This document shows, in pieces, positions 4,008 through 52,602 of a stretch of DNA of 64,000 nt. The position numbers and the translations under genes are program-made. The stretch lies in IMG/VR virus record IMGVR_UViG_2061766007_000135, one strand, 5' to 3'. Numbering within the stretch: position 1 is the first letter of the stretch; each line of letters begins with the position of its first letter. This DNA comes from an uncultured virus (IMG/VR IMGVR_UViG_2061766007_000135). Its lineage: Duplodnaviria; Heunggongvirae; Uroviricota; Caudoviricetes. The notes under the pieces were generated by a model that was not told the DNA's origin, did not search any database, and saw nothing but the letters and a program-made list of their open reading frames with translations.

Positions 4008-4376
4008 ATGACCCAGAAGATGACCAAAAAGGCTGCTTTCGTTATCGCTCAGAACGCTCTGGAAAGCATCGAGACTGAGGAAGCCCGTCAGGCTTGGGAT
4101 GTAATCCAGAAGGAAATCGAGCGCCTGGAGCGCACCGCTCTGAAGGCGAAGACCACCGAGACCAAGGCCGATAAGGCCAAAGCCGAATTCCGGCAGACCG
4201 TGCTGGAGCTGGTTGCGGACAATGGCAACGCGATGCGTGCCGGCGATGTCGCTCAGGCTCTGGAAGTAAGTGTCCAGAAGGCAGCTGCTGCGCTGAATGC
4301 GCTGGTTGCCGAAGGTGCCCTGCGTAAGGTGGATGGCGAAAAGCGCACCGTGCTTTTCGCTACCATCGAGGGCTAA
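4008..4376 (+). CDS. winged-helix DNA-binding protein, paralog 1
   Basis: MRAGDVAQALEVSVQKAAAALNALVAEG HTH; own promoter. Confidence 0.8.
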   Translation: MTQKMTKKAAFVIAQNALESIETEEARQAWDVIQKEIERLERTALKAKTTETKADKAKAEFRQTVLELVADNGNAMRAGDVAQALEVSVQKAAAALNALVAEGALRKVDGEKRTVLFATIEG

Positions 4377-6516: not shown

Positions 6517-6810
6517 ATGTATACCGCAACCCAAGCGCGCAATATCGCTAATGAACGGTATCATCACAAGTATTATAATTATTATCGGTGGTTTGTTTCT
6601 ACAATCAATTATGGTATTCGGCGGGCCGTTAAACGCGGTTTGCTGCGTTATCAGTTTTATGCCCCAGATGCCAAACATCTTACGATGAGTGTTCTGCGGC
6701 AGATTGCAGACGAGTTTACTGAATATAATTATCGTACCGAAGTAATGATTGATGCTCGTGAAAATGGTAAGCATAAGCGTGGACTATTGACAATCTCGTG
6801 GGCTGAGTGA
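6517..6810 (+). CDS. hypothetical protein
   Basis: SD AGGAGG. Confidence 0.7.
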   Translation: MYTATQARNIANERYHHKYYNYYRWFVSTINYGIRRAVKRGLLRYQFYAPDAKHLTMSVLRQIADEFTEYNYRTEVMIDARENGKHKRGLLTISWAE

Positions 6811-14441: not shown

Positions 14442-14781
14442 GGGGTAGTAAAAGGTTTCGACAGGTCGTGAAGAGTATTAAGAACGCGGGTAGGCGGCGC
14501 ACCTTACGCAGCAATCAAAAGAAACGATAACTACGATTATCTTCCTGCCGTAGCCTGATTAGGCTGGCATCCTAAACAGTGGGCTTCCTGGTCGGTGACC
14601 ACTTGCGGATCAGAGAATGAACCAGGAATAAGTTTCCTATTTCTTACAAAAATAGGTGGTGGAGGCTCGTGCAACCAAGTGCGGCCCTGGTTGCTGGATA
14701 CCTTAAATCCAGCTATCGCGTAAGTAATTCTTAGTATGTTTTGCGGTTTGGACAGGGGTTCGACCCCCCTCTACTCCACCA
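14442..14781 (+). ncRNA. ssrA: tmRNA
   Basis: 5' GGGGTAGTAAAAGGTTTCGAC, 3' GACAGGGGTTCGACCCCCCTCTACTCCACCA, G3-U70, tag frame ...DNYDYLPAVA-TGA. Confidence 0.92.
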
Positions 14782-22614: not shown

Positions 22615-23577
22615 ATGTATAAATTCATTGATCTTTTTGCTGGTATTGGCGGGTTTCGGTTAGCATTTGAAGCTAATACTTGTTAGTGTGTATTCTCAAG
22701 TGAAATTGATAAATTCGCTTAGTAGACTTATGCTGCTAATTTTGGAGACACTCCTGCTGGAGATATAACATAGATTTCTACAGATGATATTCCTGATTTT
22801 GATATTTTAGTAGGCGGTTTCCCTTGTTAGCCATTTTCTTTGGCAGGTATCGGCACTAAAAAGTTTCTTGACCGACCAACAGGTTTTGAAGATAAAACAT
22901 CAGGAACTTTATTTTTTGATATTTGCCGCATACTGCAAGCGAAACAACCTAAAGCCCTCTTATTAGAGAATGTAAAGAATTTAGCTTCACATGATCAAGG
23001 TAAAACTTTCAAAATTATTTTGGAATCACTTTCTGAATTAGGCTATAAAGTTTTTTATCAAGTGATTGATGGAAAATTATATGTGCCGCAACATCGAGAG
23101 CGTATGGTAATAGTAGGATTTAGAAAGGATATAATTGGTGATGAATCATTTGATTTCGCACTTAATCCTCCTGTGGGACGACTTTTGAATGTAGGCGATA
23201 TTCTTGAAAATAACGTGGAAGCTAAATATACCTTAAGTGATACAATGTGGAATTGGATTCAAAACCATACTGCTAAACATTAGGCTCTTGGACACGGTTT
23301 TTCATTTGGATTAATTTCTCCAGAAGGTATCACAAATACTTTAACTGCACGTTATTATAAAGATGGTAAAGAAATATTGGTGCCGCAAGAAGGTATGAAT
23401 CCACGACGTTTAACTCCTCGTGAATGTGCAAGGTTATAGGGATTTCCAGATTCATTTAAGATTGTTTGTTCAAATACTCAAGCTTATAAGCAATTTGGCA
23501 ATTCTGTGGTAGTACCTTTAATGCAAGATGTAGCAAGATTAATTGTTTTAAAGCTAGATGAATTAACTACTATTTGA
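22615..23577 (+). CDS. dcm: DNA (cytosine-5)-methyltransferase, TAG-recoded (7 TAG)
   Basis: [13 protein letters not shown][TAG][22 protein letters not shown][TAG]GFP, QFGNSV. Confidence 0.93.
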
Positions 23578-24731: not shown

Positions 24732-24736
24732 TTCAA

Positions 24737-24797
24737 GAGATGCGCACAGCAATGATTTTACATTCTTACCATTTATTGAGAACAAGTAAGGCATCTC
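24737..24797 (+). ncRNA. stem-CAGCAA RNA copy 2
   Basis: GAGATGC-GCA-CAGCAA...GCATCTC. Confidence 0.65.
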
Positions 24798-24808
24798 GTA
24801 AATAATAA

Positions 24809-24885: not shown

Positions 24886-24994
24886 AGACCGTTTCAGCAA
24901 GTGCCGCAAGGCTTTAGCATTTGTCAAGTGGATAAGACATAACTTTGGAAGAGTTAGAACACGGGTCCGAATCCCGTATGCGATTAAGCGGTCT
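24886..24994 (+). ncRNA. stem-CAGCAA RNA copy 3 with embedded CCA-less tRNA body (GGA loop)
   Basis: AGACCGTT/AGCGGTCT stem; internal D arm, TAACT-TTGGAAG-AGTTA arm, ACGGG-TCCGAAT-CCCGT T arm. Confidence 0.7.
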
Positions 24995-25255: not shown

Positions 25256-25260
25256 TTTTA

Positions 25261-25375
25261 AAGACCTGTCAGCAATTTTCTTTTGTTTAGTGGAAACCGA
25301 GGTTATCAGTTCGAGTCTGATCGTCCCCACCGTGGGGATGTAGCTCAAGTGGCAGAGCACGTAATAGCGGGTCTT
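25261..25375 (+). ncRNA. stem-CAGCAA RNA copy 4 with circularly permuted tRNA module (YrlA-like)
   Basis: T arm 25305-25321, closed acceptor hairpin CGTCCCCA-CCG-TGGGGATG, D arm TAGCTCAAGTGGCAGAGC, inside AAGACCTGT/GCGGGTCTT stem. Confidence 0.8.
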
Positions 25376-25403
25376 GTATTTATATTTTACAAGGAGAAAA
25401 ATT

Positions 25404-27955: not shown

Positions 27956-28129
27956 GCTCTTGCCGCAGAAGTAGATACTGCTCGTAAAGCATATCTAGAA
28001 GCACAGAAAACCTATCGTGAAAAGCTAGAAGGTTTCTGTAGTAAGTATGGTACCTATCACTATACAGTTGAAAATGGTGAAGAAATTCCTTCTCTCTTTG
28101 ATTTCTTTGGTAATCTTCTAAGATTCTAA
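27956..28129 (+). CDS. 3' part of paralog of 22079-22396 (5' end lost in N gap)
   Basis: AEVDTARKAYLEAQK..KLEGFCSKYGTYH. Confidence 0.65.
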   Translation, partial: ALAAEVDTARKAYLEAQKTYREKLEGFCSKYGTYHYTVENGEEIPSLFDFFGNLLRF

Positions 28130-28169
28130 GAAAGGCTTATGGACTGAGCCTATCAGTCCTTTCTTTTAT

Positions 28170-28263
28170 AGCCCCTTAGTTCAACGGCTAGAACACCGGT
28201 CTCTAAAACCGTTATATCCCTCTGAAGGAGGTAGTCTGGGTTCAAATCCCAGAGGGGCTGCCA
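28170..28263 (+). tRNA. amber suppressor tRNA(CUA), copy 2, long variable region
   Basis: Full cloverleaf, CUA anticodon, A1-U72, G73, CCA. Confidence 0.9.
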
Positions 28264-28269
28264 TAATAA

Positions 28270-28342
28270 AAGACGCTTCTATCAGCAATTAACCTTACAG
28301 GATGGGTTAATATCCTGTGCCATTTAGAATATATGGCGTCTT
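28270..28342 (+). ncRNA. stem-CAGCAA RNA copy 5
   Basis: AAGACGC...CAGCAA...GCGTCTT. Confidence 0.65.
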
Positions 28343-28403
28343 GTTTGATTTTTCTTAAAAAATATGATATTATTTATATATAAGGTTGAGGGAGGAAAGT
28401 CAA

Positions 28404-28745
28404 ATGGCAAAATGGTATGTTTATGTTGATGATGAACGCAAAATTGATCCCGCGACCAATACTCAGTATATTTGGTCATGTTATGTACATGGCCTTTCAG
28501 TTTGTTTGACTTGCCGCGATTATTGGGCGACAATTAATACTCTGAAAGAATTGGCTGAGCACAATGACCAAGTGGTGATTGATCTTGATCATGATCTTGG
28601 TCCTGGTAAGAATGGATATGATATTTGCAAATGGATTTTGGAAAATCATTATCCGATTGTCGCGTTTCATATCCACTCTATGAATCCGGTCGGAGTGTTT
28701 AATATGCGGCAATTACTTAAACGGTATGGGTATAAAGAGTTTTAA
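28404..28745 (+). CDS. cyclic-phosphate-processing receiver-like domain protein
   Basis: VYVDDER, DLDHDLG, NGYDICKWI, IHSMNPVG. Confidence 0.8.
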   Translation: MAKWYVYVDDERKIDPATNTQYIWSCYVHGLSVCLTCRDYWATINTLKELAEHNDQVVIDLDHDLGPGKNGYDICKWILENHYPIVAFHIHSMNPVGVFNMRQLLKRYGYKEF

Positions 28746-28832
28746 CTTGAAAATTTCAAAAATTTTTGATATAATATATATAGAAGATGAGGAAAGGCGA
28801 TGATTCCATTGTTCTAAATCTTCTGTAAATTT

Positions 28833-28894
28833 TAGGCACTATCAGCAATCATTCATAAGTCATATTTGGTAGTATATGGGTGAAAAAGTGCCTA
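28833..28894 (+). ncRNA. stem-CAGCAA RNA copy 6
   Basis: TAGGCACT-AT-CAGCAA...AGTGCCTA. Confidence 0.7.
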
Positions 28895-28900
28895 GTTTAT

Positions 28901-28977
28901 CGGGGTGTAGCGCAGTTTGGTAGCGCACCTGATTTGGGATCAGGGGGTCGCAGGTTCGAATCCTGTCGCCCCGACCA
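28901..28977 (+). tRNA. tRNA-Pro(UGG)
   Basis: Cloverleaf, CCA. Confidence 0.95.
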
Positions 28978-28980
28978 TAT

Positions 28981-29091
28981 TAGACAATTACAGCAAATAA
29001 GATTTAATCTTAATGTTATGGGTTCGACTCCCATTAGTTGTGCATTACAAGTATAGCTCAGTTGGTAGAGCGTAAGAATATGAATTGTCTA
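28981..29091 (+). ncRNA. stem-CAGCAA RNA copy 7 with circularly permuted tRNA module (YrlA-like)
   Basis: TAGACAATT/AATTGTCTA stem; T arm 29018-29034, closed acceptor hairpin, D arm TAGCTCAGTTGGTAGAGC 29054-29071. Confidence 0.8.
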
Positions 29092-29120
29092 GGAATAATA
29101 ATATAAAGGTGGTTGAGACA

Positions 29121-29375
29121 ATGGAGCGTGTTCGCATGCACCTTCGTCTTGTGACCAGTGCGGACGCCGCAGAATTTGTTAGTATTCTAAATCACGATGG
29201 ATCTACAGTACGTTGGATGCTTGAAGATGCCAGTGGTAATTGTCGTGTTAATGCTCGCAGTCTAATCGGTGTTCTTTATTTTTCCACTGAGCACAATGAC
29301 GAAACCTATTTGGTAAATGCTACTGATGGTAGTGGCGATTTCCCAAAGGGGTTAGATCAGTTTAGGGTACTGTAA
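29121..29375 (+). CDS. HPr-like protein
   Basis: AAEFV...RVNARSLIGVL (HPr Ser46 region). Confidence 0.65.
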   Translation: MERVRMHLRLVTSADAAEFVSILNHDGSTVRWMLEDASGNCRVNARSLIGVLYFSTEHNDETYLVNATDGSGDFPKGLDQFRVL

Positions 29376-29386
29376 AACCCTATTAT

Positions 29387-29460
29387 AGGTGACTAGCGTA
29401 ATGGTAGCGCAAACGGCTCTGACCCGTTATGTCGGGGTTCAATTCCCTGGTCACCTGCCA
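29387..29460 (+). tRNA. tRNA-Gln(CUG)
   Basis: Cloverleaf, G73, CCA. Confidence 0.9.
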
Positions 29461-29464
29461 ATAT

Positions 29465-29538
29465 TGGGGTATAGCCAAATGGTAAGGCACGGGACTTTGA
29501 CTCCCGCATTGCAGGTTCGATCCCTGCTACCCCAGCCA
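29465..29538 (+). tRNA. tRNA-Gln(UUG)
   Basis: U1-A72, CCA. Confidence 0.95.
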
Positions 29539-29546
29539 TATTATAT

Positions 29547-30083
29547 GCCGTCGTGGCTCAATGGTAGAGCAGCTGATTTGTTAGCCAAATTTATATCTAT
29601 GATTGAATTAGCTCCTAAACAAAAAGGTAACTTAACTGAATTACAATGCTTAACTGCATTTTATGAATTAGGTTATCAGTGTAGTATCCCCTATGGTGAG
29701 AACTCACGGTATGATTTGATTGCAGATATAGACGGTAAGCTAATACGAGTACAATGTAAAACCTCACGAGAGGTTGAACCTGGAGTAATTGAATTTCCTT
29801 GTAGAAGTTCTCGTAGTAATACTCAATCTAATTTGCAACGTCGTTATACCGCAAATGAAATTGATTACTTTTGCACTTTTTGGAATGGACAATGTTATTT
29901 AGTACCAATTTCAGAATGTTCAGTAAGTAAAAAATTACGATTTGTTCCACCTAAAAATGGGCAGAAAGTAGGAATTACTTATGCAAAAGATTATGAACTT
30001 CAAGGACAACTTGAAAAATTGAAAGGTTAAACATTGGCTAACAAATCAGCAGGTTGTAGGTTCGACTCCTATCGGCGGCTCCA
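29547..30083 (+). tRNA. tRNA-Thr(UGU) interrupted by a ~462-nt insertion (exons about 29547-29581 and 30044-30083)
   Basis: Joined exons give a canonical cloverleaf with GCTGA-TT-TGT-AA-TCAGC and TCCA end. Confidence 0.85.
29599..30030 (+). CDS. PD-(D/E)XK homing endonuclease (group I intron-associated, I-Ssp6803I-like family)
   Basis: KGNLTE...SIPYGENSRYDLIAD..LIRVQCKT...YTANEIDYF..YLVP. Confidence 0.85.
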   Translation: MIELAPKQKGNLTELQCLTAFYELGYQCSIPYGENSRYDLIADIDGKLIRVQCKTSREVEPGVIEFPCRSSRSNTQSNLQRRYTANEIDYFCTFWNGQCYLVPISECSVSKKLRFVPPKNGQKVGITYAKDYELQGQLEKLKG

Positions 30084-30115
30084 ACGTGAAGCGATAACAC
30101 CATAATAACACTTTT

Positions 30116-30221
30116 AAGATGACTTTCCGGCCTACTTCAGCAATGCTTAGCCAGGATGGTGTAAAAGGTTAGCATACCCGTAAGGGAGATTCCGGTTCGA
30201 CTCCGGATCAATAGTCATCTT
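30116..30221 (+). ncRNA. stem-CAGCAA RNA copy 8 with D-arm/T-arm (elbow-like) module
   Basis: AAGATGACT/AGTCATCTT stem; GGTGTAAAAGGTTAGCAT, CCC-GTAA-GGG, TCCGG-TTCGACT-CCGGA. Confidence 0.7.
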
Positions 30222-30225
30222 GTAT

Positions 30226-30310
30226 GGGAGCGTGGCCGAGTGGCTTAAGGCGGCGGTCTTGAAAACCGTTGACCCGAGAGGGTCCGTGGGTTCAAATCCT
30301 ACCGCTCCCG
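30226..30310 (+). tRNA. tRNA-Ser(UGA), CCA in N gap
   Basis: Class II cloverleaf. Confidence 0.92.
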
Positions 30311-30347
30311 NNNNNNNNNNNNNNNNNNNNNNNNNNNNTACAATAAA

Positions 30348-30443
30348 GGGCTTGCAGCAATTAACATATAAAAAAGAAATTAATTTATTTTATTGTAATT
30401 GCAAAATAAATTTTATGACATATAAATTCAGGAGTTTAAGCCC
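30348..30443 (+). ncRNA. stem-CAGCAA RNA copy 9
   Basis: GGGCTT-G-CAGCAA...AAGCCC with AU-rich interior. Confidence 0.6.
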
Positions 30444-30477
30444 CGCGTAAGCGCACAAATGAATGAATATTTATATG

Positions 30478-30561
30478 AAGAGCACTACAGCAATGTTTAC
30501 AAGTTATTTTTGACAGTATATAATAATATAGGTTTATTAATAAAAGTGAATTGATGCTCTT
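30478..30561 (+). ncRNA. stem-CAGCAA RNA copy 10
   Basis: AAGAGCA-CTA-CAGCAA...TGCTCTT. Confidence 0.65.
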
Positions 30562-30756
30562 GTAATCATATTCAATTTGCTGGAAAAATAAATCAATACT
30601 GCGTCTGGTCAGCGCAGTGTAAACGTCCCTTCATTCTTTCCTTCCTTTCTATCTGTGTTGGTGCGTTGTAAAAATTAGGGTTAGTCGTCATAAGGGTGTG
30701 AGGCGATTAGCCCTAATTTTTTTTATAAATTTATTATTGGAAAGGAGATAAATAAT

Positions 30757-32233: not shown

Positions 32234-33748
32234 ATGAATACTTTGCTGAATGGTATGAAGGCTGCTTCTAACTACACTTTGACCGAGAATGGTGGCATCA
32301 CTCATAAGACTACCAATAGTGATCTGTTGGATATGTTCGCTATGGGCGCCGCTATGCGCAATCGCTCTGACGAGGATGTTATCCTCATGTTCCAGAAGGC
32401 GTTTGCAGAGAACGCTGAACTGGCTATGAAGATGCTCTTCTATATCCGTGACGTGCGCGGCGGCCAGGGTGAGCGTCGTTTCTTCCGCGTTGTAATGAAG
32501 TGGGCAGCTGGTAACAAGGCTACCCGTGAGTCCGTGCGCAAGAATATTCAGTATATCCCTGAGTTCGGTCGTTGGGATGATCTGTATACTTTGTGCGATA
32601 CTGCACTGGAACAGGATATGTTTGCCTTCATGAAGAGCCAGTTGGTTCTGGATTTGGAGTGCAAGACTCCTTCTCTGTTGGCTAAGTGGATGAAGTCTGA
32701 GAATGCAAGTTCTCAGGAAACTGCTCGTTTGGCCGAGAAGACTCGTTGTTATCTGCATATGACCCATAAGGAGTATCGTAAGATGCTCTCTATCATGCGT
32801 GCGCGCATTAACGTTCTTGAGGTTTTGATGTCCGCTAATCGTTGGGATGAAATCGAATTCGATAAGATCCCTTCTAAGGCTGGTCTGATCTATAAGAATG
32901 CTTTTGCCCGTCGTGACATCATTAAGGCAAAGTATGAACAGTTCGCTAAGGATGAGAATACTAAGGTAAATGCCGGTGCTCTATATCCTTACGAAGTGGT
33001 AGAAAAGGCTATCCAGCTTATGGGTGGCTATTATCGCGGTGGTCGTGTGGCCCTCGATAATACTGACCGCCTGATGATCAATAAGTACTGGGAGAATTTG
33101 ACTGACTTCTTCGCGGGAGCCAAGTTGAATGCTCTGTGTATGATTGATACCTCTGGCTCTATGAGCGGTACTCCTATCAATGTCGCTACGGCACTTGGTA
33201 TGTACTGCGCAGAGCGTAATCAGGGTCCTTGGGCCAACCACTATATCAGCTTCAGCTCTCGTCCTCAGTTGATCGAGACCTCTGGTGTCGACTTCTGTGA
33301 CAAGGTACAGCGTATTGTGGATACCAACCTATGCGAGAACACCAATATCGAAGCCGCCTTCGATATGGTGCTGAACACCTGTCTGCGCAATCATCTGTCT
33401 CAGAGCGCTCTGCCTGAGTATATGATTGTTATCAGTGATATGGAATTCGATCAGGCTACCGGCAATTACTGGCGTCGTAGCGGTTCTAGTATGTGCACCG
33501 CAAATGCTGAGACCGTTATGGAGACCATTGAGCGTAAGTTCAATGCCGCAGGCTATCGTATGCCTAAGCTGATTTATTGGAATGTGGATGCTCGTCAGGC
33601 CAACATTCCTATGATCGGTAATCACTATGTAAGCTATGTGTCTGGCTTCAGTCCTTCTATCTTCAAGAGCATCTTGACCGGCAAGTCTGGTTGGGACTTG
33701 ATGCTGGAAGCGATTGATTGTGAGCGCTATGCTTGCATTCACGCCTAA
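32234..33748 (+). CDS. DUF2828-family helical + vWA protein (Ro60/TROVE-like architecture)
   Basis: TENG, FYIRDVRGGQGER, FGRWDDL, LAKW, MIDAS DTSGSM, ISDMEFD, IYWNV, VSGFSPSIF. Confidence 0.85.
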   Translation: MNTLLNGMKAASNYTLTENGGITHKTTNSDLLDMFAMGAAMRNRSDEDVILMFQKAFAENAELAMKMLFYIRDVRGGQGERRFFRVVMKWAAGNKATRESVRKNIQYIPEFGRWDDLYTLCDTALEQDMFAFMKSQLVLDLECKTPSLLAKWMKSENASSQETARLAEKTRCYLHMTHKEYRKMLSIMRARINVLEVLMSANRWDEIEFDKIPSKAGLIYKNAFARRDIIKAKYEQFAKDENTKVNAGALYPYEVVEKAIQLMGGYYRGGRVALDNTDRLMINKYWENLTDFFAGAKLNALCMIDTSGSMSGTPINVATALGMYCAERNQGPWANHYISFSSRPQLIETSGVDFCDKVQRIVDTNLCENTNIEAAFDMVLNTCLRNHLSQSALPEYMIVISDMEFDQATGNYWRRSGSSMCTANAETVMETIERKFNAAGYRMPKLIYWNVDARQANIPMIGNHYVSYVSGFSPSIFKSILTGKSGWDLMLEAIDCERYACIHA

Positions 33749-37234: not shown

Positions 37235-38644
37235 ATGGCATATGTTGGATATGTAGTCAAAGTTGAGCATCTGCGCAAACATTTGAATGCTGATCGTTTG
37301 CAAATTGCTACCTTTTTTGGTAATGATACCATTGTTGGTATGAATACCAATTATGGCGATATGGGCATTTATTTTCCTGTAGATGGTCAGCTTTCTGAGC
37401 GTTATTGCGCAGTTAATGATCTTGTGCGTCGTAAGGATGAAAATGGCAAGCAGTGTGGTGGCTATTTGAGTCCTGAGAAGCGCAATATTAAAGCTTTGAA
37501 GCTTCGTGGTGAAAAATCTGATGGTCTATTTATGCCTTTGACTTCTTTGGCAGATTTTTGTAAAATTTCTGATTTGAAAGTCGGAGATACCATTAGTGTC
37601 ATTAATGGTGAAGAGATTTGCCGCAAATATATTCCTAATGTAAATATTGCAGTTCATACCAAAGGTGCTGAGACTCCACGCAAGGCCAAGGCTAATATTG
37701 CTCCTACTTTTTATGAGCATGTTGATACTGCGCAGTTGGCTTATAATCTTAATGCTTTTAAGCCTGGGGATATAATTCAGTTAACTCTTAAGATGCACGG
37801 CACCTCTGGACGTACTGGTTATCTTCCTCTTGTACATATTAAAAAGACTTGGCTTGATAAACTGCTTCATCGTGCAGGCAAAGAATATAAAGAATATGGC
37901 TATATAACTGGCACCCGTCGTGTAGTTTTGGATGACACTCATAAGGGTGGCTTCTATGAATCTGATGATTTCCGTCACGCAATGGCTGCAAAGTTTGAAG
38001 GTAAGCTTCATAAGGGTGAAGTCGTTTATTATGAAATCGTTGGATTCCAAGGCCCTAATGGTGCTCCTATTATGGGACAGGTTCAGAACTCTAAGGTAAA
38101 GGATCCTGAGTTCACTAAGCAGTATGGCGCAGTTACTACTTTCGCATATGGCTGCGATCCTGCCGGCACCTATGAAATGCAGACTAATGAAGCTGGCGAT
38201 ATGGTAATGCCTCCTTGCTGCGAAGTATATGTATATCGTATGACTATGGTCAATGAGGATGGCGACGTTACTGAATATTCTCCTGCTCAGATTAAAGAAC
38301 GTTGTGAGCAGATGGGTGTTCATACCGTTATGGAATTTGAAACCTTCATTATTCCTAAGAAAGAACCCGATTCTCCATTCTCACCACGTGAACCTGAATA
38401 TTATCACGATGTTAACCCTGGCGAATATGTTACTCGTAGAGTAGAAAGATACTTTGATGGACCTGACCCTATTGGTCAGATTCATGTGCGCGAAGGTGTT
38501 GTTATACGTATTCTTAACCGTACTAATTTCGCAGTATATAAGCATAAGAATTTTAATTTTAAGGTGCTAGAAGGCATTGCCAAAGATGAAGCTACCGCAC
38601 CTGATATAGAGGAGGCTCAGGATGTAGGAGAAATGGTGGTTTAA
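37235..38644 (+). CDS. ATP-dependent RNA ligase (Rnl2/DRB0094-like) with N-terminal tRNA-binding OB-like domain
   Basis: KHLNADRL; motif I TLKMHGTS; YYEIVG; REGVVIR; YKHKNFNF. Confidence 0.85.
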   Translation: MAYVGYVVKVEHLRKHLNADRLQIATFFGNDTIVGMNTNYGDMGIYFPVDGQLSERYCAVNDLVRRKDENGKQCGGYLSPEKRNIKALKLRGEKSDGLFMPLTSLADFCKISDLKVGDTISVINGEEICRKYIPNVNIAVHTKGAETPRKAKANIAPTFYEHVDTAQLAYNLNAFKPGDIIQLTLKMHGTSGRTGYLPLVHIKKTWLDKLLHRAGKEYKEYGYITGTRRVVLDDTHKGGFYESDDFRHAMAAKFEGKLHKGEVVYYEIVGFQGPNGAPIMGQVQNSKVKDPEFTKQYGAVTTFAYGCDPAGTYEMQTNEAGDMVMPPCCEVYVYRMTMVNEDGDVTEYSPAQIKERCEQMGVHTVMEFETFIIPKKEPDSPFSPREPEYYHDVNPGEYVTRRVERYFDGPDPIGQIHVREGVVIRILNRTNFAVYKHKNFNFKVLEGIAKDEATAPDIEEAQDVGEMVV

Positions 38645-39477: not shown

Positions 39478-40449
39478 ATGGCCGGATTGATTATTGGCGT
39501 TATTTTTCTGATTGCTGGTTTTGCTTTTGGTGCATATGCTTCTAAAGTATATAAAAATAAAACTAAGGGCAAAGTAATTGGCAATATCGCACGAACTCTT
39601 GGTTGTCTAGTGTGCATTGCTGCAATACTTACTTCTTGCATCTCATATGTGCCGACTGGTTATACCGGCATCGTAACTACATTTGGTAAAGTACATGCTG
39701 AAACTTTGGATGCCGGTATTAATTTTCATGCACCCTGGGATAGTGTAATTACAATGGATAATCGTGAACAGCGTGGTGCTTTTACTTTGGAAGCATTCTC
39801 TAAAGATATTCAGCAGGTTAATGTCCAGGGATCTATTAACTATAATATTGATAAAACCACTGCGATGAATTTGTATCGTGATGTCGGTGTAGGATATGCT
39901 ACAATTTTGATTAGTCCTCGTATTCAAGAGGATGTTAAGATCATTATTGCTAAGTATACCGCTGAAAATCTGATTGAAAATCGCCAAGCGGCAGCTGATG
40001 CTATTTTCGAACTCATTAAAAATGAATTGGCCCCCAAGGGTATTAATGTAATTTCTCTGGCTGTAGAAAATATTGATTTTACTGATGCCTTTGAATCTGC
40101 TGTTGAAGCTAAGCAGGTAGCAACCCAAGAGAAACAGCGTGCTCAGACTCTGCAAGAGCAGCAGACTATGGAAGCTACTCAGAAAGCTGAACGTGACCGC
40201 ATCGCCGCACAGGCGCAGGCTGATATTGCCAAAATTGCGGCACAGGCTGATTTGGAAGTTGTAAAGATCCAGGCTGAAGCTGCGCTATATGCTGGCGAAA
40301 AAGAAGCCGAAATGAATAAGCGTATTGCTGAAGGTCTGACCGAAGAGCTTATCCATTATTATGAGATTAAACAGTGGGATGGCCAGTTGCCTACCTTCGT
40401 CGGTGGAGAAGGCACTTTGCCGATCTTGAACTTTGAAGTGGCGGAGTAA
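39478..40449 (+). CDS. SPFH/prohibitin (band 7) membrane protein
   Basis: TM segments, VPTGYTGIVTTFGKV, FESAVEAKQVA, WDGQLP. Confidence 0.9.
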   Translation: MAGLIIGVIFLIAGFAFGAYASKVYKNKTKGKVIGNIARTLGCLVCIAAILTSCISYVPTGYTGIVTTFGKVHAETLDAGINFHAPWDSVITMDNREQRGAFTLEAFSKDIQQVNVQGSINYNIDKTTAMNLYRDVGVGYATILISPRIQEDVKIIIAKYTAENLIENRQAAADAIFELIKNELAPKGINVISLAVENIDFTDAFESAVEAKQVATQEKQRAQTLQEQQTMEATQKAERDRIAAQAQADIAKIAAQADLEVVKIQAEAALYAGEKEAEMNKRIAEGLTEELIHYYEIKQWDGQLPTFVGGEGTLPILNFEVAE

Positions 40450-41129: not shown

Positions 41130-41996
41130 ATGCATGATGTATTTTATTTCACTGATTTGCACGGTCGTATGGATCTTTTCAATATGATGCGTGATTGGTG
41201 TTATAGTCAAGATACCGAATGTACCATTATTTATGGTGGCGATGCTTGCGATCGTGGCGAAAATGGGTACGAAATAATCCAAGAATTACTTGCTGATCCG
41301 CAAATTGTTTATCTCTATGGTAATCATGAAGATCTTTTTGTTCAAGCAGTAGATGCAATTATTGGATATTGCGCAAGTAGTGATGAAGCATATGCGCAAT
41401 TACATAATTTTCACACTGAAGAAGATGCTTGTAATTTTATCGCAACCTTAGAGCATAATGAAGCTGTTTATTTACATTTGGCTAATGGTGGTCTGTTAAC
41501 TTTGGTACATTGGCTTCTGGATGGTGCCAATGAAGAAATCATAGATCAGCTTCGTAATTTGCCTCGGGTATATAGATATAATCAAATTGATATTAGCCAT
41601 GCAGGATATACTGCTTCTGCTTTTGATGGAATTTGGGCAGCTGATGAGCAAACTGCGGCTAATGCATATGATTTACACGAAATTATTTGGAATCGTAGTT
41701 GTCTAGCATTAGGCTGGGCTACTGATCGTATTGGTGTATTTGGACATACTCCTACTGCTTCTTTGCCAGCTGGAATCTATGGACGTGACAAGAGTCTTGC
41801 AAGAATTCGTCCCTGCGCTTGGCAAGATAAGATGGGTGCCATAGAAAAGCGTGGTGGATGGAAGATTGATATGGATACTGGCGCAGTATGGACTGGTCGT
41901 GCATATGTCCTAAATCTTTTAACTCTCAATGTTATTGGATTTTATGCTGATCCTAACATAACTGCAAGTGCGTTTGAAACTTATAAAATAATATGA
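41130..41996 (+). CDS. calcineurin-like metallophosphoesterase (Ser/Thr phosphatase type)
   Basis: DLHG, GDACDRG, GNHE, HAG, GHTP, DTGA. Confidence 0.9.
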   Translation: MHDVFYFTDLHGRMDLFNMMRDWCYSQDTECTIIYGGDACDRGENGYEIIQELLADPQIVYLYGNHEDLFVQAVDAIIGYCASSDEAYAQLHNFHTEEDACNFIATLEHNEAVYLHLANGGLLTLVHWLLDGANEEIIDQLRNLPRVYRYNQIDISHAGYTASAFDGIWAADEQTAANAYDLHEIIWNRSCLALGWATDRIGVFGHTPTASLPAGIYGRDKSLARIRPCAWQDKMGAIEKRGGWKIDMDTGAVWTGRAYVLNLLTLNVIGFYADPNITASAFETYKII

Positions 41997-42158
41997 TATA
42001 ATATAAAAAATGAGAAAAGGAGTAATTGTTATGCCAACTTTTTGGATGTTTGCTTTGCTCATTGTTCTTCAGAGCTATTACCTGTATCCAGAAATGTGGA
42101 AATTTTGGAAGCAGTATTTACTGCTTTTTGTAAGAAAAGCCTCGACTAAGAAGGCGAG

Positions 42159-42464
42159 GTGAGGATGATGGGAAAGAAGGCCAATCTATTTACCATACAT
42201 GATTTTTATTGTATCAACTGTGGAGAGAAGGGAATTCCGCTTACCCGTCAGCAGTCTAAACAGCATGAAGCATTTCATCGTAAGCGCATGTATTGTTGGC
42301 ATTGTCGACACACCGTAAATCATATTGAATGTCGCAATGAAGTTGAACGTCAAGAATTTCTTCTACAGTTTAAAATGGGGGCATTTGCTGATGAAGCAAG
42401 AGCAGAATTGGAGTATGAAATTGCCCACCCTAAATTTCAAAATTATCTAAAGGAGATGCGATAA
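42159..42464 (+). CDS. zinc-ribbon protein
   Basis: CINC...CWHC. Confidence 0.7.
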   Translation: MRMMGKKANLFTIHDFYCINCGEKGIPLTRQQSKQHEAFHRKRMYCWHCRHTVNHIECRNEVERQEFLLQFKMGAFADEARAELEYEIAHPKFQNYLKEMR

Positions 42465-42947
42465 ATGCCTACTTTGTATATGATGATTGGTTCTCCTGGT
42501 TCTGGCAAGTCTACTTGGGCCCATAAGTTCCAGCAGAATCGTTTGAATACTATGTATATTTCTCGTGATGAGATTCGTATGTCTATTTTGGCAGATAATG
42601 AGCAGTATTTTTCACATGAGGATGACGTATATGAACACTTCGTAGAGGCTATTGTAAATGGATTGGTGCATAACTATGATGTAATTGCTGACGCTACTCA
42701 CCTTTCTCGTAATTCACGTATTAAGTTGGTTAAGTCTTTGCAGGCCCATGCTCTTTTAGCTGAGCAGTATGAAATTATTTTTATACATATGCTAACTCCA
42801 CTCGATGAATGTGTGCGGCGTGATGCTTTGCGCCAGGGACGTGCGCATGTAACTGACACAGTAATTCGTCGTATGTGGTATCAGGCTCAAGCACCGCAGA
42901 TACACGAATTTCCTAATGTTAAAGGAGTATGGAGTATTTATGAGTGA
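42465..42947 (+). CDS. P-loop polynucleotide-kinase-like protein (AAA_33)
   Basis: GSPGSGKST, SRDEIR, IADATH, RDALR. Confidence 0.85.
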   Translation: MPTLYMMIGSPGSGKSTWAHKFQQNRLNTMYISRDEIRMSILADNEQYFSHEDDVYEHFVEAIVNGLVHNYDVIADATHLSRNSRIKLVKSLQAHALLAEQYEIIFIHMLTPLDECVRRDALRQGRAHVTDTVIRRMWYQAQAPQIHEFPNVKGVWSIYE

Positions 42948-43554
42948 AATTTGGTTTACTAGTGATACCCATTTTGGGCATCAACAAGAATTTCTTTATG
43001 GCCCTCGACAATGTTCTACCCTACAAGAAATGGAAGAAAAGATTGTCGAACATTGGAATCAATTCGTGCGGCCAACTGATATTGTTTATCATTTGGGTGA
43101 TATTAGTATGGGAGTACCGCAAAACTTTGAATTTATTAACACGCTAAATATACTATCACGTCTTAATGGACAAATTCATTGGATACGGGGTAATCATGAT
43201 AGCGATAATAAGGTTCAAACAATTTGTAAAGCATTTCATAATATTACTTTACCTATTTGGTCTGACCTATTGGTAGTAAGTAAACATAAATTTTTTCTAT
43301 GCCATTATCCTACACTCACCGCTAATTTTGATGATAAACATTTCAGTCAACATGTGATTAGTTTACACGGTCATACACATCAAACTAAGAATTGGCTATT
43401 TGCTGATAATCCTTTTGTCTATCACGTTGGTCTTGATTCTCATGATTGTTATCCAGTCCATATTGAAACTGTCTTGGGTGATATTCGCAGTCGTTGGAAC
43501 TCTTTGGGCATGTTAAATATTACTCCTACCGGTATTTATAATGAATATCCATAA
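42940..43554 (+). CDS. metallophosphoesterase
   Basis: FTSDTHFGH, HLGD, RGNHD, HYP, HGHTH. Confidence 0.9.
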   Translation: MSEIWFTSDTHFGHQQEFLYGPRQCSTLQEMEEKIVEHWNQFVRPTDIVYHLGDISMGVPQNFEFINTLNILSRLNGQIHWIRGNHDSDNKVQTICKAFHNITLPIWSDLLVVSKHKFFLCHYPTLTANFDDKHFSQHVISLHGHTHQTKNWLFADNPFVYHVGLDSHDCYPVHIETVLGDIRSRWNSLGMLNITPTGIYNEYP

Positions 43555-51930: not shown

Positions 51931-52602
51931 ATGGACCATACAAGACGAATGCAATTAATGTCTAATCCCATTTATCATCGAGTAAATCAATGCATACATA
52001 AAATTTTAAAGGAACAAGGTACTGCTGGTTTGCAAATGATTAATTTAATACCTGCATTAAGTACATATAATGTATTAGATAGTTTAGAACCACCAGTACA
52101 AAAAATCTATAATGATAAATGTAAATTGTTAGGATATTATGGTATGCTACAAGCTGATTTACCAATTGTAACTAAAGCGCAAGTATTAATTGATTATTAT
52201 TATGATAGCGAATATACACATTATAATAAACAATCAATGTCGGTAAAAACACCAATTAAAAATAACCTGACAACATCTATTGATTCCAACATACATTATA
52301 TTTATTTAATTTATCATATAAATACTATACAATATCCTACTAAAAAATATGTTGGCCGTACAATTGATGTTATTCGTCGTATGAATGAAGAGCATTTTAA
52401 TCCTAAATACTGGGATCGGTCACCTAATAAATTATTATATTGGAATATGCGTTTAGATGGTGTTGACCAATATGCTTACAAGATATTAGAAATATGTCAT
52501 AGCGAACAGCAAGCCAAAGAACGAGAAAATTATTGGATAGAAAAATTACATACTCTATCTAAATATGGTGGTTTCAATGAAAGAAAAGAAATTGCCGCAT
52601 AA
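51931..52602 (+). CDS. GIY-YIG family nuclease
   Basis: YIYLI...YVGRT..R...ERENYWI..GFN. Confidence 0.75.
   Translation: MDHTRRMQLMSNPIYHRVNQCIHKILKEQGTAGLQMINLIPALSTYNVLDSLEPPVQKIYNDKCKLLGYYGMLQADLPIVTKAQVLIDYYYDSEYTHYNKQSMSVKTPIKNNLTTSIDSNIHYIYLIYHINTIQYPTKKYVGRTIDVIRRMNEEHFNPKYWDRSPNKLLYWNMRLDGVDQYAYKILEICHSEQQAKERENYWIEKLHTLSKYGGFNERKEIAA

Follow-up and report, generated by a model that had tools for sequence, protein, structure and literature searches.

The window analysed here is a stretch of 64,000 nucleotides of DNA from an uncultured virus of the Caudoviricetes. The source is a cattle-gut phage; the window DNA was carried by nine sequencing runs, all of them of DNA and mostly of bovine gut metagenome. 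A megablast search of positions 28000–30500 against phage records returned tRNA-sized matches only, indicating the lack of a close cultured relative. The element under study lies within a phage tRNA array, and the features of the locus and of the wider window are as follows:

14442–14781: ordinary one-piece tmRNA
24734–24800, 28267–28345, 28830–28897 and 30475–30564: stem-only versions of the element, between tRNAs
24886–24994: stem enclosing a normal-order tRNA-like sequence, called by ARAGORN as tRNA-Ser(GGA)
25261–25375, + strand: sister copy with the same architecture and other stems, directly 3′ of tRNA-Gly
28386–28745: cREC domain gene
28747–28775, + strand: promoter-like site (TTGAAA, 17-base spacer, TATAAT, with TG), a consensus match only
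28830–28897, + strand: stem-only relative (AGRC...CAGCAA...GYCU) lacking the tRNA-like insert (30.2 bits, E 7e-4)
28901–28977, + strand: tRNA-Pro(TGG), stopping 3 bases before the element
28981–29091, + strand: the whole element, 111 bases, read directly from the sequence
32234–33748, + strand: gene for a 504-aa protein with DUF2828 and DUF7788/vWA domains (Pfam), PHROG 850 'RNA-binding protein'
37235–38644: RNA ligase gene
41130–43554: kinase and phosphoesterase genes

The 3-nt gap between tRNA-Pro and the element suggests shared transcription; the stem-only relative at 28830–28897 lies on the opposite side of the same tRNA. From its sequence, the site at 28747–28775 is a candidate start of the transcript carrying the element, promoter-like sites as a class being no more numerous than in shuffled sequences (42 vs 34.9 ± 5.5). 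Homing-endonuclease-like genes are present elsewhere in the window.

Layout of the element and its sister copy

The element can be divided into the following parts:

28981–28989, + strand: closing helix, 5′ strand TAGACAATT; its AGAC core is kept across the family
28990–28996, + strand: ACAGCAA, conserved single-stranded motif beside the closing stem
28998–29012, + strand: local hairpin TAAGA/TTTAA/TCTTA, occupying the place of the YrlA 'V arm'
29008–29012, + strand: TCTTA, 5′ strand of the anticodon-stem stand-in, pairing with 29073–29077 (5/5)
29013–29017, + strand: five-base variable loop ATGTT, the last base being position 48, partner of position 15
29018–29034, + strand: T arm ATGGG/TTCGACT/CCCAT
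29035–29053, + strand: acceptor-like hairpin TAGTTGT/GCATT/ACAAGTA, 6/7 paired, sealed by its loop, without CCA
29056–29071, + strand: D arm GCTC/AGTTGGTA/GAGC, followed by G29072 (position 26)
29073–29077, + strand: TAAGA, 3′ strand of the anticodon-stem stand-in
29083–29091, + strand: closing helix, 3′ strand AATTGTCTA, pairing with 28981–28989 (9/9)

The initial annotation had described the T and D arms, a closing helix of 9 bp and a TCTTA/TAAGA anticodon-stem equivalent, and each of these was found in the sequence as described. The acceptor it had given as TAGTTGT-GCATT-ACAAGTA does form a hairpin but is not fully paired, owing to a G29037·G29051 mismatch that it did not mention. Also absent from that annotation were the ACAGCAA stem signature, the downstream Ro60-like gene and a competing local hairpin: the second TAAGA (28998–29002) is able to pair with TCTTA at 29008–29012, so that the local hairpin and the long-range stem compete for the same strand. 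A complete 7-nt anticodon loop is absent from either arrangement, the local hairpin having a loop of 3–5 nt and the long-range stem being loopless.

When aligned to the YrlA model, the T loop TTCGACT and the D loop AGTTGGTA, which carries A14, G18 and G19, present the tRNA invariants, and T29054 and A29055 correspond to tRNA positions U8 and A9. Thermodynamic folding alone gave a weak signal (z-score −2.21); the minimum-energy fold (−25.6 kcal/mol) was not cloverleaf-like, the cloverleaf-like fold lying at −19.6 or −22.5 kcal/mol, and single-sequence folding did not recover the tRNA-like fold for the 28981 or the 25261 copy.

The sister copy is built from the T stem ATCAG/CTGAT, the acceptor stem CGTCCCC/GGGGATG and the closing helix AAGACCTGT/GCGGGTCTT. 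The T, acceptor and closing-helix stems thus all differ between the two copies, in agreement with the initial description of 28981–29091 as a second copy with divergent stem sequences.

Covariation and the stem signature in phage homologues

We analysed the conservation of the fold with a covariance model, R2, trained on 72 matches in other phage contigs and containing no window row; this training set had been gathered with model R1, which was seeded with 10 rows, both window copies among them. R2 scored positions 28978–29094 at 104.8 bits (E 6.6e-19) and the sister copy (25258–25378) at 78.4 bits (E 1.4e-13). In alignment A4, with 32 rows including both window copies, 96.3% of pair cells were paired and 25 of the 27 pairs showed changes on both sides, against 35–45% pairing in slid controls. 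In alignment A5, with 64 distinct homologue rows and no window row, the corresponding values were 96.1% of 1704 pair cells, 26 of the 27 pairs and 36–45%; both alignments were fitted to the structure of the model, which favours that structure.

Compensation extended over individual helices of the fold. In A5, the closing helix (helix 1) was paired in 99.1% of cells, with double-sided changes in 7/7 pairs, and the acceptor-like helix (helix 4) in 95.1%, with double-sided changes in 6/6 pairs; such changes were also seen in 5/5 pairs of helix 2 (TCTTA/TAAGA). In the family alignment, the closing-helix bases downstream of AGAC covary with their partners on the 3′ strand. G-U pairs were frequent in the helices of A5, showing that pairing acts on RNA. 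These observations establish a family whose fold is conserved through covariation. They bear out the earlier proposal that the architecture rather than the sequence is conserved and under selection; homologues losing pairing without compensation, which that proposal had named as the outcome that would speak against it, were not what we found, given 96.1% pairing against 36–45% in the controls.

The tRNA-like features are likewise shared. Among 66 members, T8, A14 and the D-loop GG were present in all 66 and the T loop TTCRANT in 64. The tertiary pair 15–48 was A-U in 32 members and G-C in 25, G15·U48 occurring in the 28981 copy alone. Twenty-seven of the 66 have CCA among the seven loop bases that directly follow the 3′ acceptor strand. 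Ahead of the variable loop, some members have a stem of 5 bp closed by an anticodon-like loop of 7 nt:

L110, 5334–5462: anticodon-like loop TTGAAAC
L114, 9938–10065: anticodon-like loop ATGATAA

The family is marked by the signature AGAC-N4-ACAGCAA ... N4-GUCU, which replaces the GNCGAA motif of YrlA. Exact CAGCAA was present in 62 of the 64 distinct members, with one mismatch in the remaining two, the motif having been included in the pattern used to retrieve loci L081 and above. Stems of the form RGRC-N3–5-CAGCAA with a 7-bp complement occurred six times on the + strand and never on the − strand of the window, and 87 times and never, respectively, across 80 loci, a total of 93, all of them on the coding strand. 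We propose ACAGCAA at 28990–28996 as the putative docking site for a Ro-like protein.

The Ro60-like protein and its linkage to the RNA

The element lies 3.1 kb upstream of the DUF2828 gene at 32234–33748, on the same strand and separated from it by tRNAs and ORFs. The AlphaFold2 model of its 504-aa product (pLDDT 77, pTM 0.70) is predicted to form a helical-repeat ring plus a vWA domain, as in Ro60 and TROVE proteins. The top 12 Foldseek matches were all Ro60, Rsr, the Ro60 of phage phiLo or TROVE (E 1e-6 to 3e-5). VIA-align superposed model residues 11–485 on Xenopus Ro60 with Z 19.9 and rmsd 4.4 over 388 aligned residues; the phiLo Ro60 gave Z 13.7 and Deinococcus Rsr Z 13.0, while matches confined to the vWA domain reached Z 11.7 at most. 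The MIDAS motif of vWA domains has the form DxSxS, and in 28 homologues the motif DTSGS (D305, T306, S307 and S309) was invariant.

At the sequence level, Pfam searches to E 10 matched DUF7788, DUF2828 and VWA_2 only, with no TROVE (PF05731); phmmer against PDB sequences returned no Ro60 and only a chance-level fibrillarin match, and NCBIfam gave no match. The identification of the 504-aa protein as Ro60-like is based on its predicted fold. Homologues were found in 704 cultured-phage records, annotated as 'RNA-binding protein', 'Ro-like RNA binding protein', 'putative ribonucleoprotein' or DUF2828. Burroughs and Aravind are said to have possibly grouped DUF2828 with Ro/TROVE proteins already in 2016; a literature search on DUF2828, at the level of titles and the opening parts of abstracts, yielded none on phages or Ro60.

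The RNA and the Ro-like gene lie close together and on the same strand in many phages. Starting from the protein, 107 R1 matches were detected across the window and 80 loci, and every one shared the strand of the gene. Starting from the RNA, with 10-kb flanks, 51 of the 80 loci contained a Ro-like gene, in all 51 cases on the strand of the RNA, at a median RNA–gene distance of 538 nt and within 700 nt in 28 loci. The other 29 loci had no Ro-like gene within 10 kb, and for six of these, shared contig names place a Ro-like gene elsewhere on the same contig.

Twelve loci from named phages were also assessed. In five, R2 matches were strong (E < 1e-8) and adjoined the Ro-like gene or lay in a tRNA array beside it: Mycobacterium phage Nicholas (79.8 bits, L207 positions 6541–6674, directly after gene 54, annotated 'Ro-like RNA binding protein'), Klebsiella phage phi1_175008 (a tandem pair 3′ of the Ro-like gene, at 69.6 and 69.2 bits), Bacillus phage Thrax1 (two matches, at 89.7 and 56 bits), Sinorhizobium phage phiN3 (69.1 bits) and Enterococcus phage VRE9_2 (55.4 bits). 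The RNA is unannotated in all five records. Two further matches, in Staphylococcus and Campylobacter phages, were moderate; those in two Listeria loci, Felixounavirus and an Aeromonas phage were weak or doubtful, and the Vibrio phage ValKK3 locus gave no R2 match. In Nicholas, Staphylococcus phage S-CoN_Ph6 and many contigs, the RNA is the immediate neighbour of the Ro-like gene in surroundings with few or no tRNAs.

Probable assignment as a Y-RNA-like element, and its alternatives

The initial annotation had termed the element a permuted tRNA module. The rotated T-acceptor-D shape was confirmed, but tRNA identity was not, as a 7-nt anticodon loop and CCA are missing and the acceptor is sealed. 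A true tRNA gene was ruled out on these features together with the lack of an ARAGORN call. A piece of a tmRNA was likewise ruled out, neither RF04321 nor ARAGORN calling anything at 28981–29091 and no tag reading frame being present.

The closest known relative is YrlA (Rfam RF02553; PMC4201824). Both RNAs follow the same order of parts: a 5′/3′ stem, a motif beside the stem, a small hairpin, a variable loop, the T arm, a sealed acceptor-like hairpin and the D arm. Both carry tRNA invariants in the T and D loops, show covariation of the 15–48 pair (for the window RNA at the level of the family, the 28981 copy itself having G·U), are encoded near and on the same strand as a protein of Ro60 fold (predicted in the present case), and can occur more than once per genome alongside simpler, YrlB-like forms. 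YrlA was the best non-tRNA Rfam family at both window copies, although its scores of 29.4 bits (28981 copy) and 31.8 bits (sister copy), with 37.9 and 37.5 bits for named-phage homologues, stay below the gathering score of 69; the matches span model positions 22–89 of 114 (23–87 in the alignment of the 28981 copy) and cover the tRNA-like core and not the stem. YrlA itself is bound by Ro60/Rsr in cells and carries base modifications of the tRNA type, pseudouridine 55 and dihydrouridine having been mapped in it. The two RNAs differ in that YrlA has GNCGAAN0–1G near its 5′ end whereas the window RNA has ACAGCAA after an AGAC-N4 stem, and in that the window RNA, unlike YrlA, sits in a phage tRNA array. 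The partner of YrlA is a TROVE-domain Ro60 encoded within 4 kb, while the candidate partner here is a DUF2828 protein with no Pfam TROVE match. Of the 22 phages listed in Table S2 of Chen et al. (PMC4201824), none belongs to the DUF2828-bearing groups found here.

The rotated tRNA-like shape, the conserved closing stem and the probable Ro60-like partner suggest a variant of the known bacterial Y RNAs. We consider it likely, taking identity and mechanism jointly, that the element encodes a small YrlA-type non-coding RNA, some 111 nt long, acting as follows. The ends of the RNA would pair through AGAC and about four covarying pairs, with N4-GUCU on the 3′ side and ACAGCAA left unpaired, and the middle would fold as a circularly rotated tRNA comprising the anticodon-stem stand-in, variable loop, T arm, loop-sealed acceptor stem and D arm. 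The RNA would be transcribed together with the tRNA array. It probably partners the Ro60-like protein encoded 3 kb downstream, to judge from gene order and the predicted fold, and the stem and motif would dock on the outer face of the ring. Y RNAs tether Ro60 to PNPase; here, the tRNA-shaped domain may recruit tRNA-handling or RNA-degrading enzymes, and the particle could survey or repair tRNAs and other structured RNAs during infection. Expression, binding and this cellular role are inferred. The RNA ligase, kinase and phosphoesterases encoded nearby form the context of the surveillance and repair proposal.

The tRNA-like features of the family allow another reading, in which the RNA functions as a tRNA-like molecule in split or permuted form: RNase P would cut the acceptor loop, the 3′ piece would end in or receive CCA, and the two pieces, held by the acceptor stem and closing helix, would be charged or serve as a decoy, as with two-piece tmRNA. 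The 27 members with CCA in the loop, the anticodon-like loops of L110 and L114, and the cutting of Mycobacterium smegmatis YrlA by RNase P with gain of CCA (PMC4201824) agree with this. The 28981 copy itself, with its CCA-less GCATT loop, G·G acceptor mismatch and local hairpin loop of 3–5 nt in place of an anticodon loop, and without a call by ARAGORN or Rfam tmRNA_permuted, makes this reading unlikely; it would in any case be compatible with Ro-like protein binding too. Less likely again is that the AGAC...CAGCAA...GUCU stem works in cis within the phage tRNA operons to direct processing or confer stability, perhaps as a nuclease entry site or protective clamp, without any link to the Ro-like protein and with tRNA-like inserts as mere passengers. 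The positions of the elements within a few bases of tRNA genes, the four stem-only sites between tRNAs and the stem around tRNA-Ser(GGA) would be expected of such a signal, but the RNA adjoins the Ro-like gene also where few or no tRNAs are near (median 538 nt), and the insert keeps a 15–48 tertiary covariation that a passenger would not need.

Two further explanations deny the element a function as RNA. A decayed junction of tandem tRNA genes, joining the 3′ part of one to the 5′ part of the next, could account for the CCA-plus-spacer loops of relatives, which resemble tRNA–tRNA junctions and may reflect the origin of the family, and for the 28.3 bits of the Rfam tRNA model on 28984–29042 (cut-off 29); according to Chen et al., tRNA dimers may score as YrlA (PMC4201824). 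Yet all five helices are kept with compensation in 64 distinct homologues, the stem and motif belong to no tRNA, and ARAGORN called no tRNA between 28977 and 29387, which renders a functionless junction very improbable. We give least weight of all to an inverted-repeat site acting at the DNA level in recombination, homing or replication: the terminal inverted repeats, the many copies per genome and the homing-endonuclease-like genes of the window are met by a strict strand specificity (93 coding vs 0 other), by many G-U pairs that would be A-C mismatches on the other strand, and by internal arms that are tRNA arms.

Under the preferred Y-RNA-like assignment, several other systems can be compared. 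Chen et al. (2014, PMC4201824) reported YrlA close to the Ro60 genes of 254 bacteria and 22 phages, and the Ro60 of Thermus phage phiLo binds two Y-like RNAs and host PNPase (Hu et al. 2025, PMC12135203). In phiLo, as here, the gene of the Ro60-fold protein has Y-like RNAs upstream on the same strand (Yrl1 and Yrl2), whose stem flanks a bulge with a short conserved motif. These RNAs were chosen by a CGAA motif in a stem-bulge-stem, no tRNA-like domain being mentioned in the available portion of that paper; binding of protein and PNPase was experimental there (PMC12135203), whereas the present pair is known from sequence and predicted fold. In Listeria phage CKA15, a homologous gene is preceded within less than 2 kb by three regions of high transcription, for which Y RNAs were suggested (mSystems 2025, PMC12282133); the homologous protein (HHpred match to Rsr) and the non-coding transcribed regions upstream are again on the same strand. 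CKA15 relatives were among the tblastn matches of the window's protein. The two related Listeria loci gave only 23.7 and 23.9 bits with R2, just upstream of the gene, and a ROOL-like RNA (89.8 bits vs a cut-off of 99.1) lies upstream of the gene in one Listeria locus, L205, suggesting that the abundant Listeria RNAs may be something else.

Permuted arrangements are also found among tRNAs and tmRNAs. Circularly permuted tRNA genes were reportedly described by Soma and co-workers in 2007 in the red alga Cyanidioschyzon merolae; once processed, their products are ordinary tRNAs that have an anticodon loop. In these genes, as in the window RNA, the T arm and the 3′ strand of the acceptor come first and are followed by its 5′ strand and the D arm, but the window RNA lacks the anticodon loop and CCA and has an extra closing stem with a protein-type motif. 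With two-piece tmRNA (Rfam RF04321) it shares a permuted tRNA-like domain, the acceptor end of that tmRNA arising by processing. A literature search yielded no description of the window RNA family.

Y RNAs and Ro60 make up a conserved RNA-surveillance pair that is still poorly understood. Its phage examples have so far been tied to canonical TROVE proteins, namely those of the 22 phages (PMC4201824) and of phiLo (PMC12135203). The present results would add a different and much commoner phage protein family, with a predicted Ro60 fold, its own Y-like RNA family and a distinct putative docking signature. The RNA falls under the Rfam cut-off, and named phages of Mycobacterium, Bacillus, Klebsiella, Sinorhizobium and Enterococcus carry it without annotation. 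The family offers candidate RNA partners in phages of tractable hosts such as M. smegmatis and Bacillus subtilis, a clean covarying sequence set for structural work, and grounds to revisit phage tRNA mimics reported without a Ro60 partner.

A broader reading, which we regard as doubtful, is that phages have a large, uncatalogued class of RNAs, recognisable by the AGAC-N4-ACAGCAA stem, that are dedicated partners of Ro60-like proteins of the DUF2828 branch. The stem would be a universal handle loading exchangeable cargo (rotated tRNA mimics, normal-order tRNA-like units or nothing) onto the ring, and RNase P would split the CCA-bearing members into two-piece mimics whose acceptor end is free; if so, these mimics could be charged, or could bait host enzymes that attack or repair tRNAs. 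The stem-only copies scattered among the tRNAs of the window would also fit a role in RNA processing.

Parts of the element and their setting

The element at 28981-29091 (+) is genuine, and it is both structured and conserved. It sits in a phage-like window that carries, between 13.7 and 30.3 kb, a tmRNA of the one-piece type together with 36 tRNA genes, each on the + strand, and it starts 3 bases past a tRNA-Pro (28901-28977). Direct reading of the sequence located every piece quoted in the initial annotation, each at its place in the following order.

Parts of the element, read from the sequence
28981-28989 (+), closing helix, 5' strand, TAGACAATT
28990-28996 (+), ACAGCAA
28998-29012 (+), small hairpin, TAAGA/TTTAA/TCTTA
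29013-29017 (+), ATGTT
29018-29034 (+), T arm, ATGGG/TTCGACT/CCCAT
29035-29053 (+), acceptor-like hairpin, TAGTTGT/GCATT/ACAAGTA, with one G.G mismatch
29054-29055 (+), T and A between acceptor-like hairpin and D arm
29056-29071 (+), D arm, GCTC/AGTTGGTA/GAGC
29072 (+), G after the D arm
29073-29077 (+), TAAGA, downstream copy
29078-29082 (+), ATATG
29083-29091 (+), closing helix, 3' strand, AATTGTCTA

The sister copy (25261-25375, +), immediately 3' of a tRNA-Gly, has the identical order of parts and different stem sequences, as described earlier. Single-sequence folding of the element gave a z-score of -2.21, which is unconvincing taken alone; cloverleaf-like folds reached -19.6 kcal/mol with the long-range stem and -22.5 with the local hairpin, and the minimum-energy fold -25.6.

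Within the tRNA array, the phage's own tmRNA (14442-14781) scored 82.9 bits and encodes the tag peptide GAPYAAIKRNDNYDYLPAVA. The 94-nt tRNA at 28170-28263 (anticodon CTA, 'Pyl' according to ARAGORN, Rfam tRNA 57.9 bits) is a candidate amber-suppressor tRNA of a gut phage. Also among the tRNAs, a 147-aa ORF (22840-23283) matches a C-5 cytosine DNA methylase profile only at positions 82-214 of 324 and reads as a fragment or split gene.

Covariation and tRNA-like shape of the family

A protein-first scan of viral contigs returned 236 relatives, from which 80 loci were retained. A regular expression (T loop, then D arm) hit 47 sites across the window and these loci; the ten with hairpin-forming intervening bases, including both window copies, were aligned as the seed of covariance model R1. 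This model gave 107 matches at E <= 0.01 in the window and the 80 loci, all sharing their strand with the Ro-like gene. In alignment A4 (the 32 best matches, including both window copies), 96.3% of pair cells were paired and 25 of 27 pairs were double-changed, against 35-45% in slid controls. Alignment A5 (72 matches, 64 distinct, without the window rows) had 96.1% of 1704 cells paired and 26/27 pairs double-changed, against 36-45% in slid controls, with support for all five helices; the stand-in for the anticodon stem was 88.1% paired, with 5/5 pairs double-changed. Both alignments were fitted to the structure of the model, which biases them toward it, and the margin over the slid controls is still very large. 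Model R2, trained on A5 only, detected the element at 104.8 bits (E 6.6e-19) and the sister copy at 78.4 bits (E 1.4e-13). The covariation in A5 and these scores favour selection on the architecture, as the initial annotation had argued: the homologues keep the pairing by compensatory change rather than losing it.

The shape of the family is that of a tRNA with rotated arms. Across 66 members (the 64 distinct rows and the two window copies), A at position 14, T at position 8 and GG in the D loop were invariant (66/66 each), the T loop was TTCRANT in 64 and the variable loop had 5 bases in 62. The tertiary 15-48 pair was A-U in 32 and G-C in 25, the element being the sole G-U case; the same covariation was used for YrlA by Chen et al. 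2014 (PMC4201824). CCA directly follows the 3' acceptor strand in 27/66 members, and a 7-nt anticodon-like loop occurs in a few; the element has neither. These two features point to an origin of the family from tandem tRNA genes. By analogy with Mycobacterium smegmatis YrlA, for which RNase P cleavage was reported (PMC4201824), they leave room for cleavage of such members into a two-piece mimic. In three members (L110:5334-5462, L114:9938-10065 and L081:9070-9198), a hairpin precedes the variable loop, its stem being 5 bp long and its anticodon-like loop 7-8 nt (e.g. TTGAAAC and ATGATAA), and the long-range stem is absent; their layout resembles that of an entire tRNA whose permutation point falls between D arm and anticodon arm.

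The TCTTA of the element has two possible partners, the upstream TAAGA (local hairpin) and the downstream TAAGA (long-range stem). The upstream complement was perfect in 22/65 members (permuted control, 5.6%), and the long-range stem in 33/57. In the subfamily with both TAAGA-type strands, both track changes in the middle strand (e.g. L058:3823-3938, TCTTT with AAAGA on each side), suggesting two alternative conformations or a 'V arm' of the YrlA type.

The closing stem and its linkage to a Ro-like gene

All members share a stem foreign to tRNAs, with 5' (A/U)AGRC, approximately four covarying pairs and an unpaired (A)CAGCAA, and 3' N4-GYCU(U/A)G. CAGCAA was exact in 62/64 distinct members and had a single mismatch in the remaining two, a count that is partly circular because the motif was in the retrieval pattern for loci L081 and above; among the non-window A4 rows, from protein-retrieved loci, 28/30 were exact. 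A stem search (RGRC-N3-5-CAGCAA, then a 7-bp complement within 35-230 nt) gave 6 + strand matches in the window and 87 in the 80 loci; the - strand gave 0 in either set. Short elements with this stem are interspersed among the window tRNA genes, on the + strand throughout.

Short CAGCAA-stem elements in the window
28830-28897 (+), stem-only version, R2 30.2 bits
24734-24800 (+), stem-only version, R2 25.6 bits
30475-30564 (+), stem-only version, R2 23.4 bits
28267-28345 (+), stem-only version, R2 22.6 bits
22505-22581 (+), CAGCAA stem without tRNA-like insert
30348-30443 (+), possible further short element with CAGCAA stem

The long tRNA-like and short stem-only forms recall the YrlA/YrlB pair, and the short elements are possible counterparts of the short Y RNAs of YrlB type. 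At 24886-24994, a 9-bp AGAC...CAGCAA...GUCU stem surrounds a tRNA-like unit of normal order, a 72-nt tRNA-Ser(GGA) (24914-24985, ARAGORN; Rfam tRNA 41.7 bits) without a long variable arm, so the stem, as read from these sequences, carries cargo of different kinds.

An RNA-first pattern (stem signature plus T loop) matched at least 123 stretches of viral contigs, and linkage was counted over the 80 with 10-kb flanks. Among these listed loci, 51 encoded a protein related to the Ro-like one (identity 26-63%), with RNA and gene on one strand in 51/51, at a median distance of 538 nt (28 within 700 nt, 37 within 4 kb); several loci overlap on one contig (e.g. L126, L127 and L158), so the independent cases are fewer than 51. 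Six of the 29 listed loci without the gene lie on contigs that, going by names also present in the protein-first set, have it in another place. By tblastn, the protein was detected in 704 records of phages, among them Escherichia and Salmonella Felixounavirus and phages of Mycobacterium, Listeria, Staphylococcus, Vibrio, Campylobacter, Enterococcus and Bacillus. Its annotations there are DUF2828, 'RNA-binding protein', 'Ro-like RNA binding protein', 'putative ribonucleoprotein' and 'hypothetical protein'.

R2 matches at 12 named-phage loci (strong, E below 1e-8, 5/12)
Bacillus phage Thrax1, strong, 89.7 and 56 bits, between annotated tRNAs; stem-only copies just 5' of the gene
Mycobacterium phage Nicholas, strong, 79.8 bits, 100 nt 3' of the gene
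Klebsiella phage phi1_175008, strong, 69.6 and 69.2 bits, tandem pair 3' of the gene
Sinorhizobium phage phiN3, strong, 69.1 bits
Enterococcus phage VRE9_2, strong, 55.4 bits
Staphylococcus phage S-CoN_Ph6, moderate, three tandem stem-only copies directly 3' of the gene, 37.3, 31.9 and 31.6 bits
Campylobacter phage CP30A, moderate, three in an unannotated gap 5' of the gene, 34.6 to 25.9 bits
Two Listeria phages, Felixounavirus and an Aeromonas phage, weak or doubtful; the best Felixounavirus match overlaps annotated tandem tRNAs
Vibrio phage ValKK3, no match in the R2 search

No annotated RNA feature covers any of the strong matches in the five phages. Small 'hypothetical protein' CDSs annotated over RNA matches in the Klebsiella (L214:6536-6996) and Staphylococcus (L210:6519-6866) records are probably false gene calls.

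A Ro60-like protein and the relation to YrlA

The Pfam scan covered 54 ORFs of the window and, with PHROG, placed the following genes around the element.

Protein genes around the element
28386-28745 (+), cyclic-phosphate-processing receiver domain (cREC, defined by Iyer et al. 2021, PMC7824862), Pfam
32234-33748 (+), DUF2828 + DUF7788 protein, 504 aa (the Ro-like gene), Pfam
37235-38644 (+), RNA ligase, PHROG 968, weak match to the DRB0094 ligase family
41130-43554 (+), P-loop kinase and two phosphoesterases, Pfam

By sequence, the DUF2828 protein matched neither Pfam TROVE, even at E 10, nor any Ro60 chain. Its AlphaFold2 model (28 homologues; pLDDT 77, pTM 0.70) had as its top 12 Foldseek matches Ro60, Rsr, the Ro60 of Thermus phage phiLo or 'Trove domain' exclusively. 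VIA-align gave Z 19.9 with Xenopus Ro60 (rmsd 4.4, 388 residues), 13.7 with the phiLo protein and 13.0 with Deinococcus Rsr; matches spanning the vWA domain alone were at most Z 11.7. Together with the DTSGS metal-site motif, invariant across the 28 homologues, and the PHROG 850 label 'RNA-binding protein', the predicted structure indicates that the window encodes, 3.1 kb 3' of the element and likewise on the + strand, a protein of Ro60 fold.

YrlA as defined by Chen et al. 2014 (PMC4201824) has a GNCGAAN0-1G motif, T and D stem-loops that hardly vary, an acceptor-like stem-loop separating the two, and a position <=4 kb from, and on the strand of, a gene for a TROVE protein; tandem tRNAs are named there as false positives of such searches. 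Rfam YrlA (RF02553) scored 29.4 bits on the element and 31.8 on the sister copy, against a gathering score of 69, and both matches span the tRNA-like core only (model positions 22-89 of 114); the RNAs of Nicholas and Thrax1 (37.9 and 37.5 bits) were likewise below the cut-off. The Rfam tRNA model falls just short of its cut-off at 28984-29042 (28.3 bits against 29), pairing ACAATTA with TAGTTGT as an alternative. The initial description of a 'permuted tRNA module' thus stands for the shape, with its rotated tRNA arms and 15-48 covariation, and the element as a tRNA gene is rejected. The element is instead a variant of the YrlA-type Y RNAs, with its own putative docking signature and a divergent Ro60-like candidate partner family. 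We found no description of the CAGCAA-stem family in the literature searched. The 22 YrlA phages reported by Chen et al. (20 Bxz1-like mycobacteriophages, Bacillus phage G and Caulobacter phage CcrColossus; Ro proteins of 469-552 aa) include none from the groups carrying this family here (PMC4201824).

The element RNA quite probably serves as a Y-RNA-like scaffold for the Ro-like ring in RNA surveillance or repair. The stem and ACAGCAA motif would dock on the ring, the tRNA-shaped domain would engage tRNA-binding or RNA-degrading enzymes, and the particle, if expressed, would act during infection, in line with the surrounding ligase, kinase, phosphoesterase and cREC genes. In a Thermus phage, Ro60 is reported to bind two Y-like RNAs, chosen by a CGAA motif, and to bind and dampen host PNPase (Hu et al. 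2025, PMC12135203), and for some jumbo phages Iyer et al. 2021 (PMC7824862) note a tRNA-like partner of ROT/TROVE proteins.

A Band 7/SPFH gene lies a few kb from the Ro-like gene in the window (39478-40449) and in Nicholas (gene 48, L207:2752-3684), and may be a coincidence or a recurrent neighbour. GIY-YIG endonuclease-like ORFs adjoining the gyrase A and DNA ligase genes (51931-52602 and 54826-55479) are probably homing endonucleases. In Listeria phage vB_Liva_VAfA18, a ROOL-like RNA (L205:3469-4020; 89.8 bits against a cut-off of 99.1) lies between a tRNA-Pro and the DUF2828 gene, with its 3' part under a CDS (4055-4291) annotated as 'putative ribonucleoprotein'. Three highly transcribed regions 5' of the homologous gene were reported in the related Listeria phage CKA15, Y RNAs being one explanation raised (PMC12282133); a ROOL-like RNA may explain some of these abundant transcripts.
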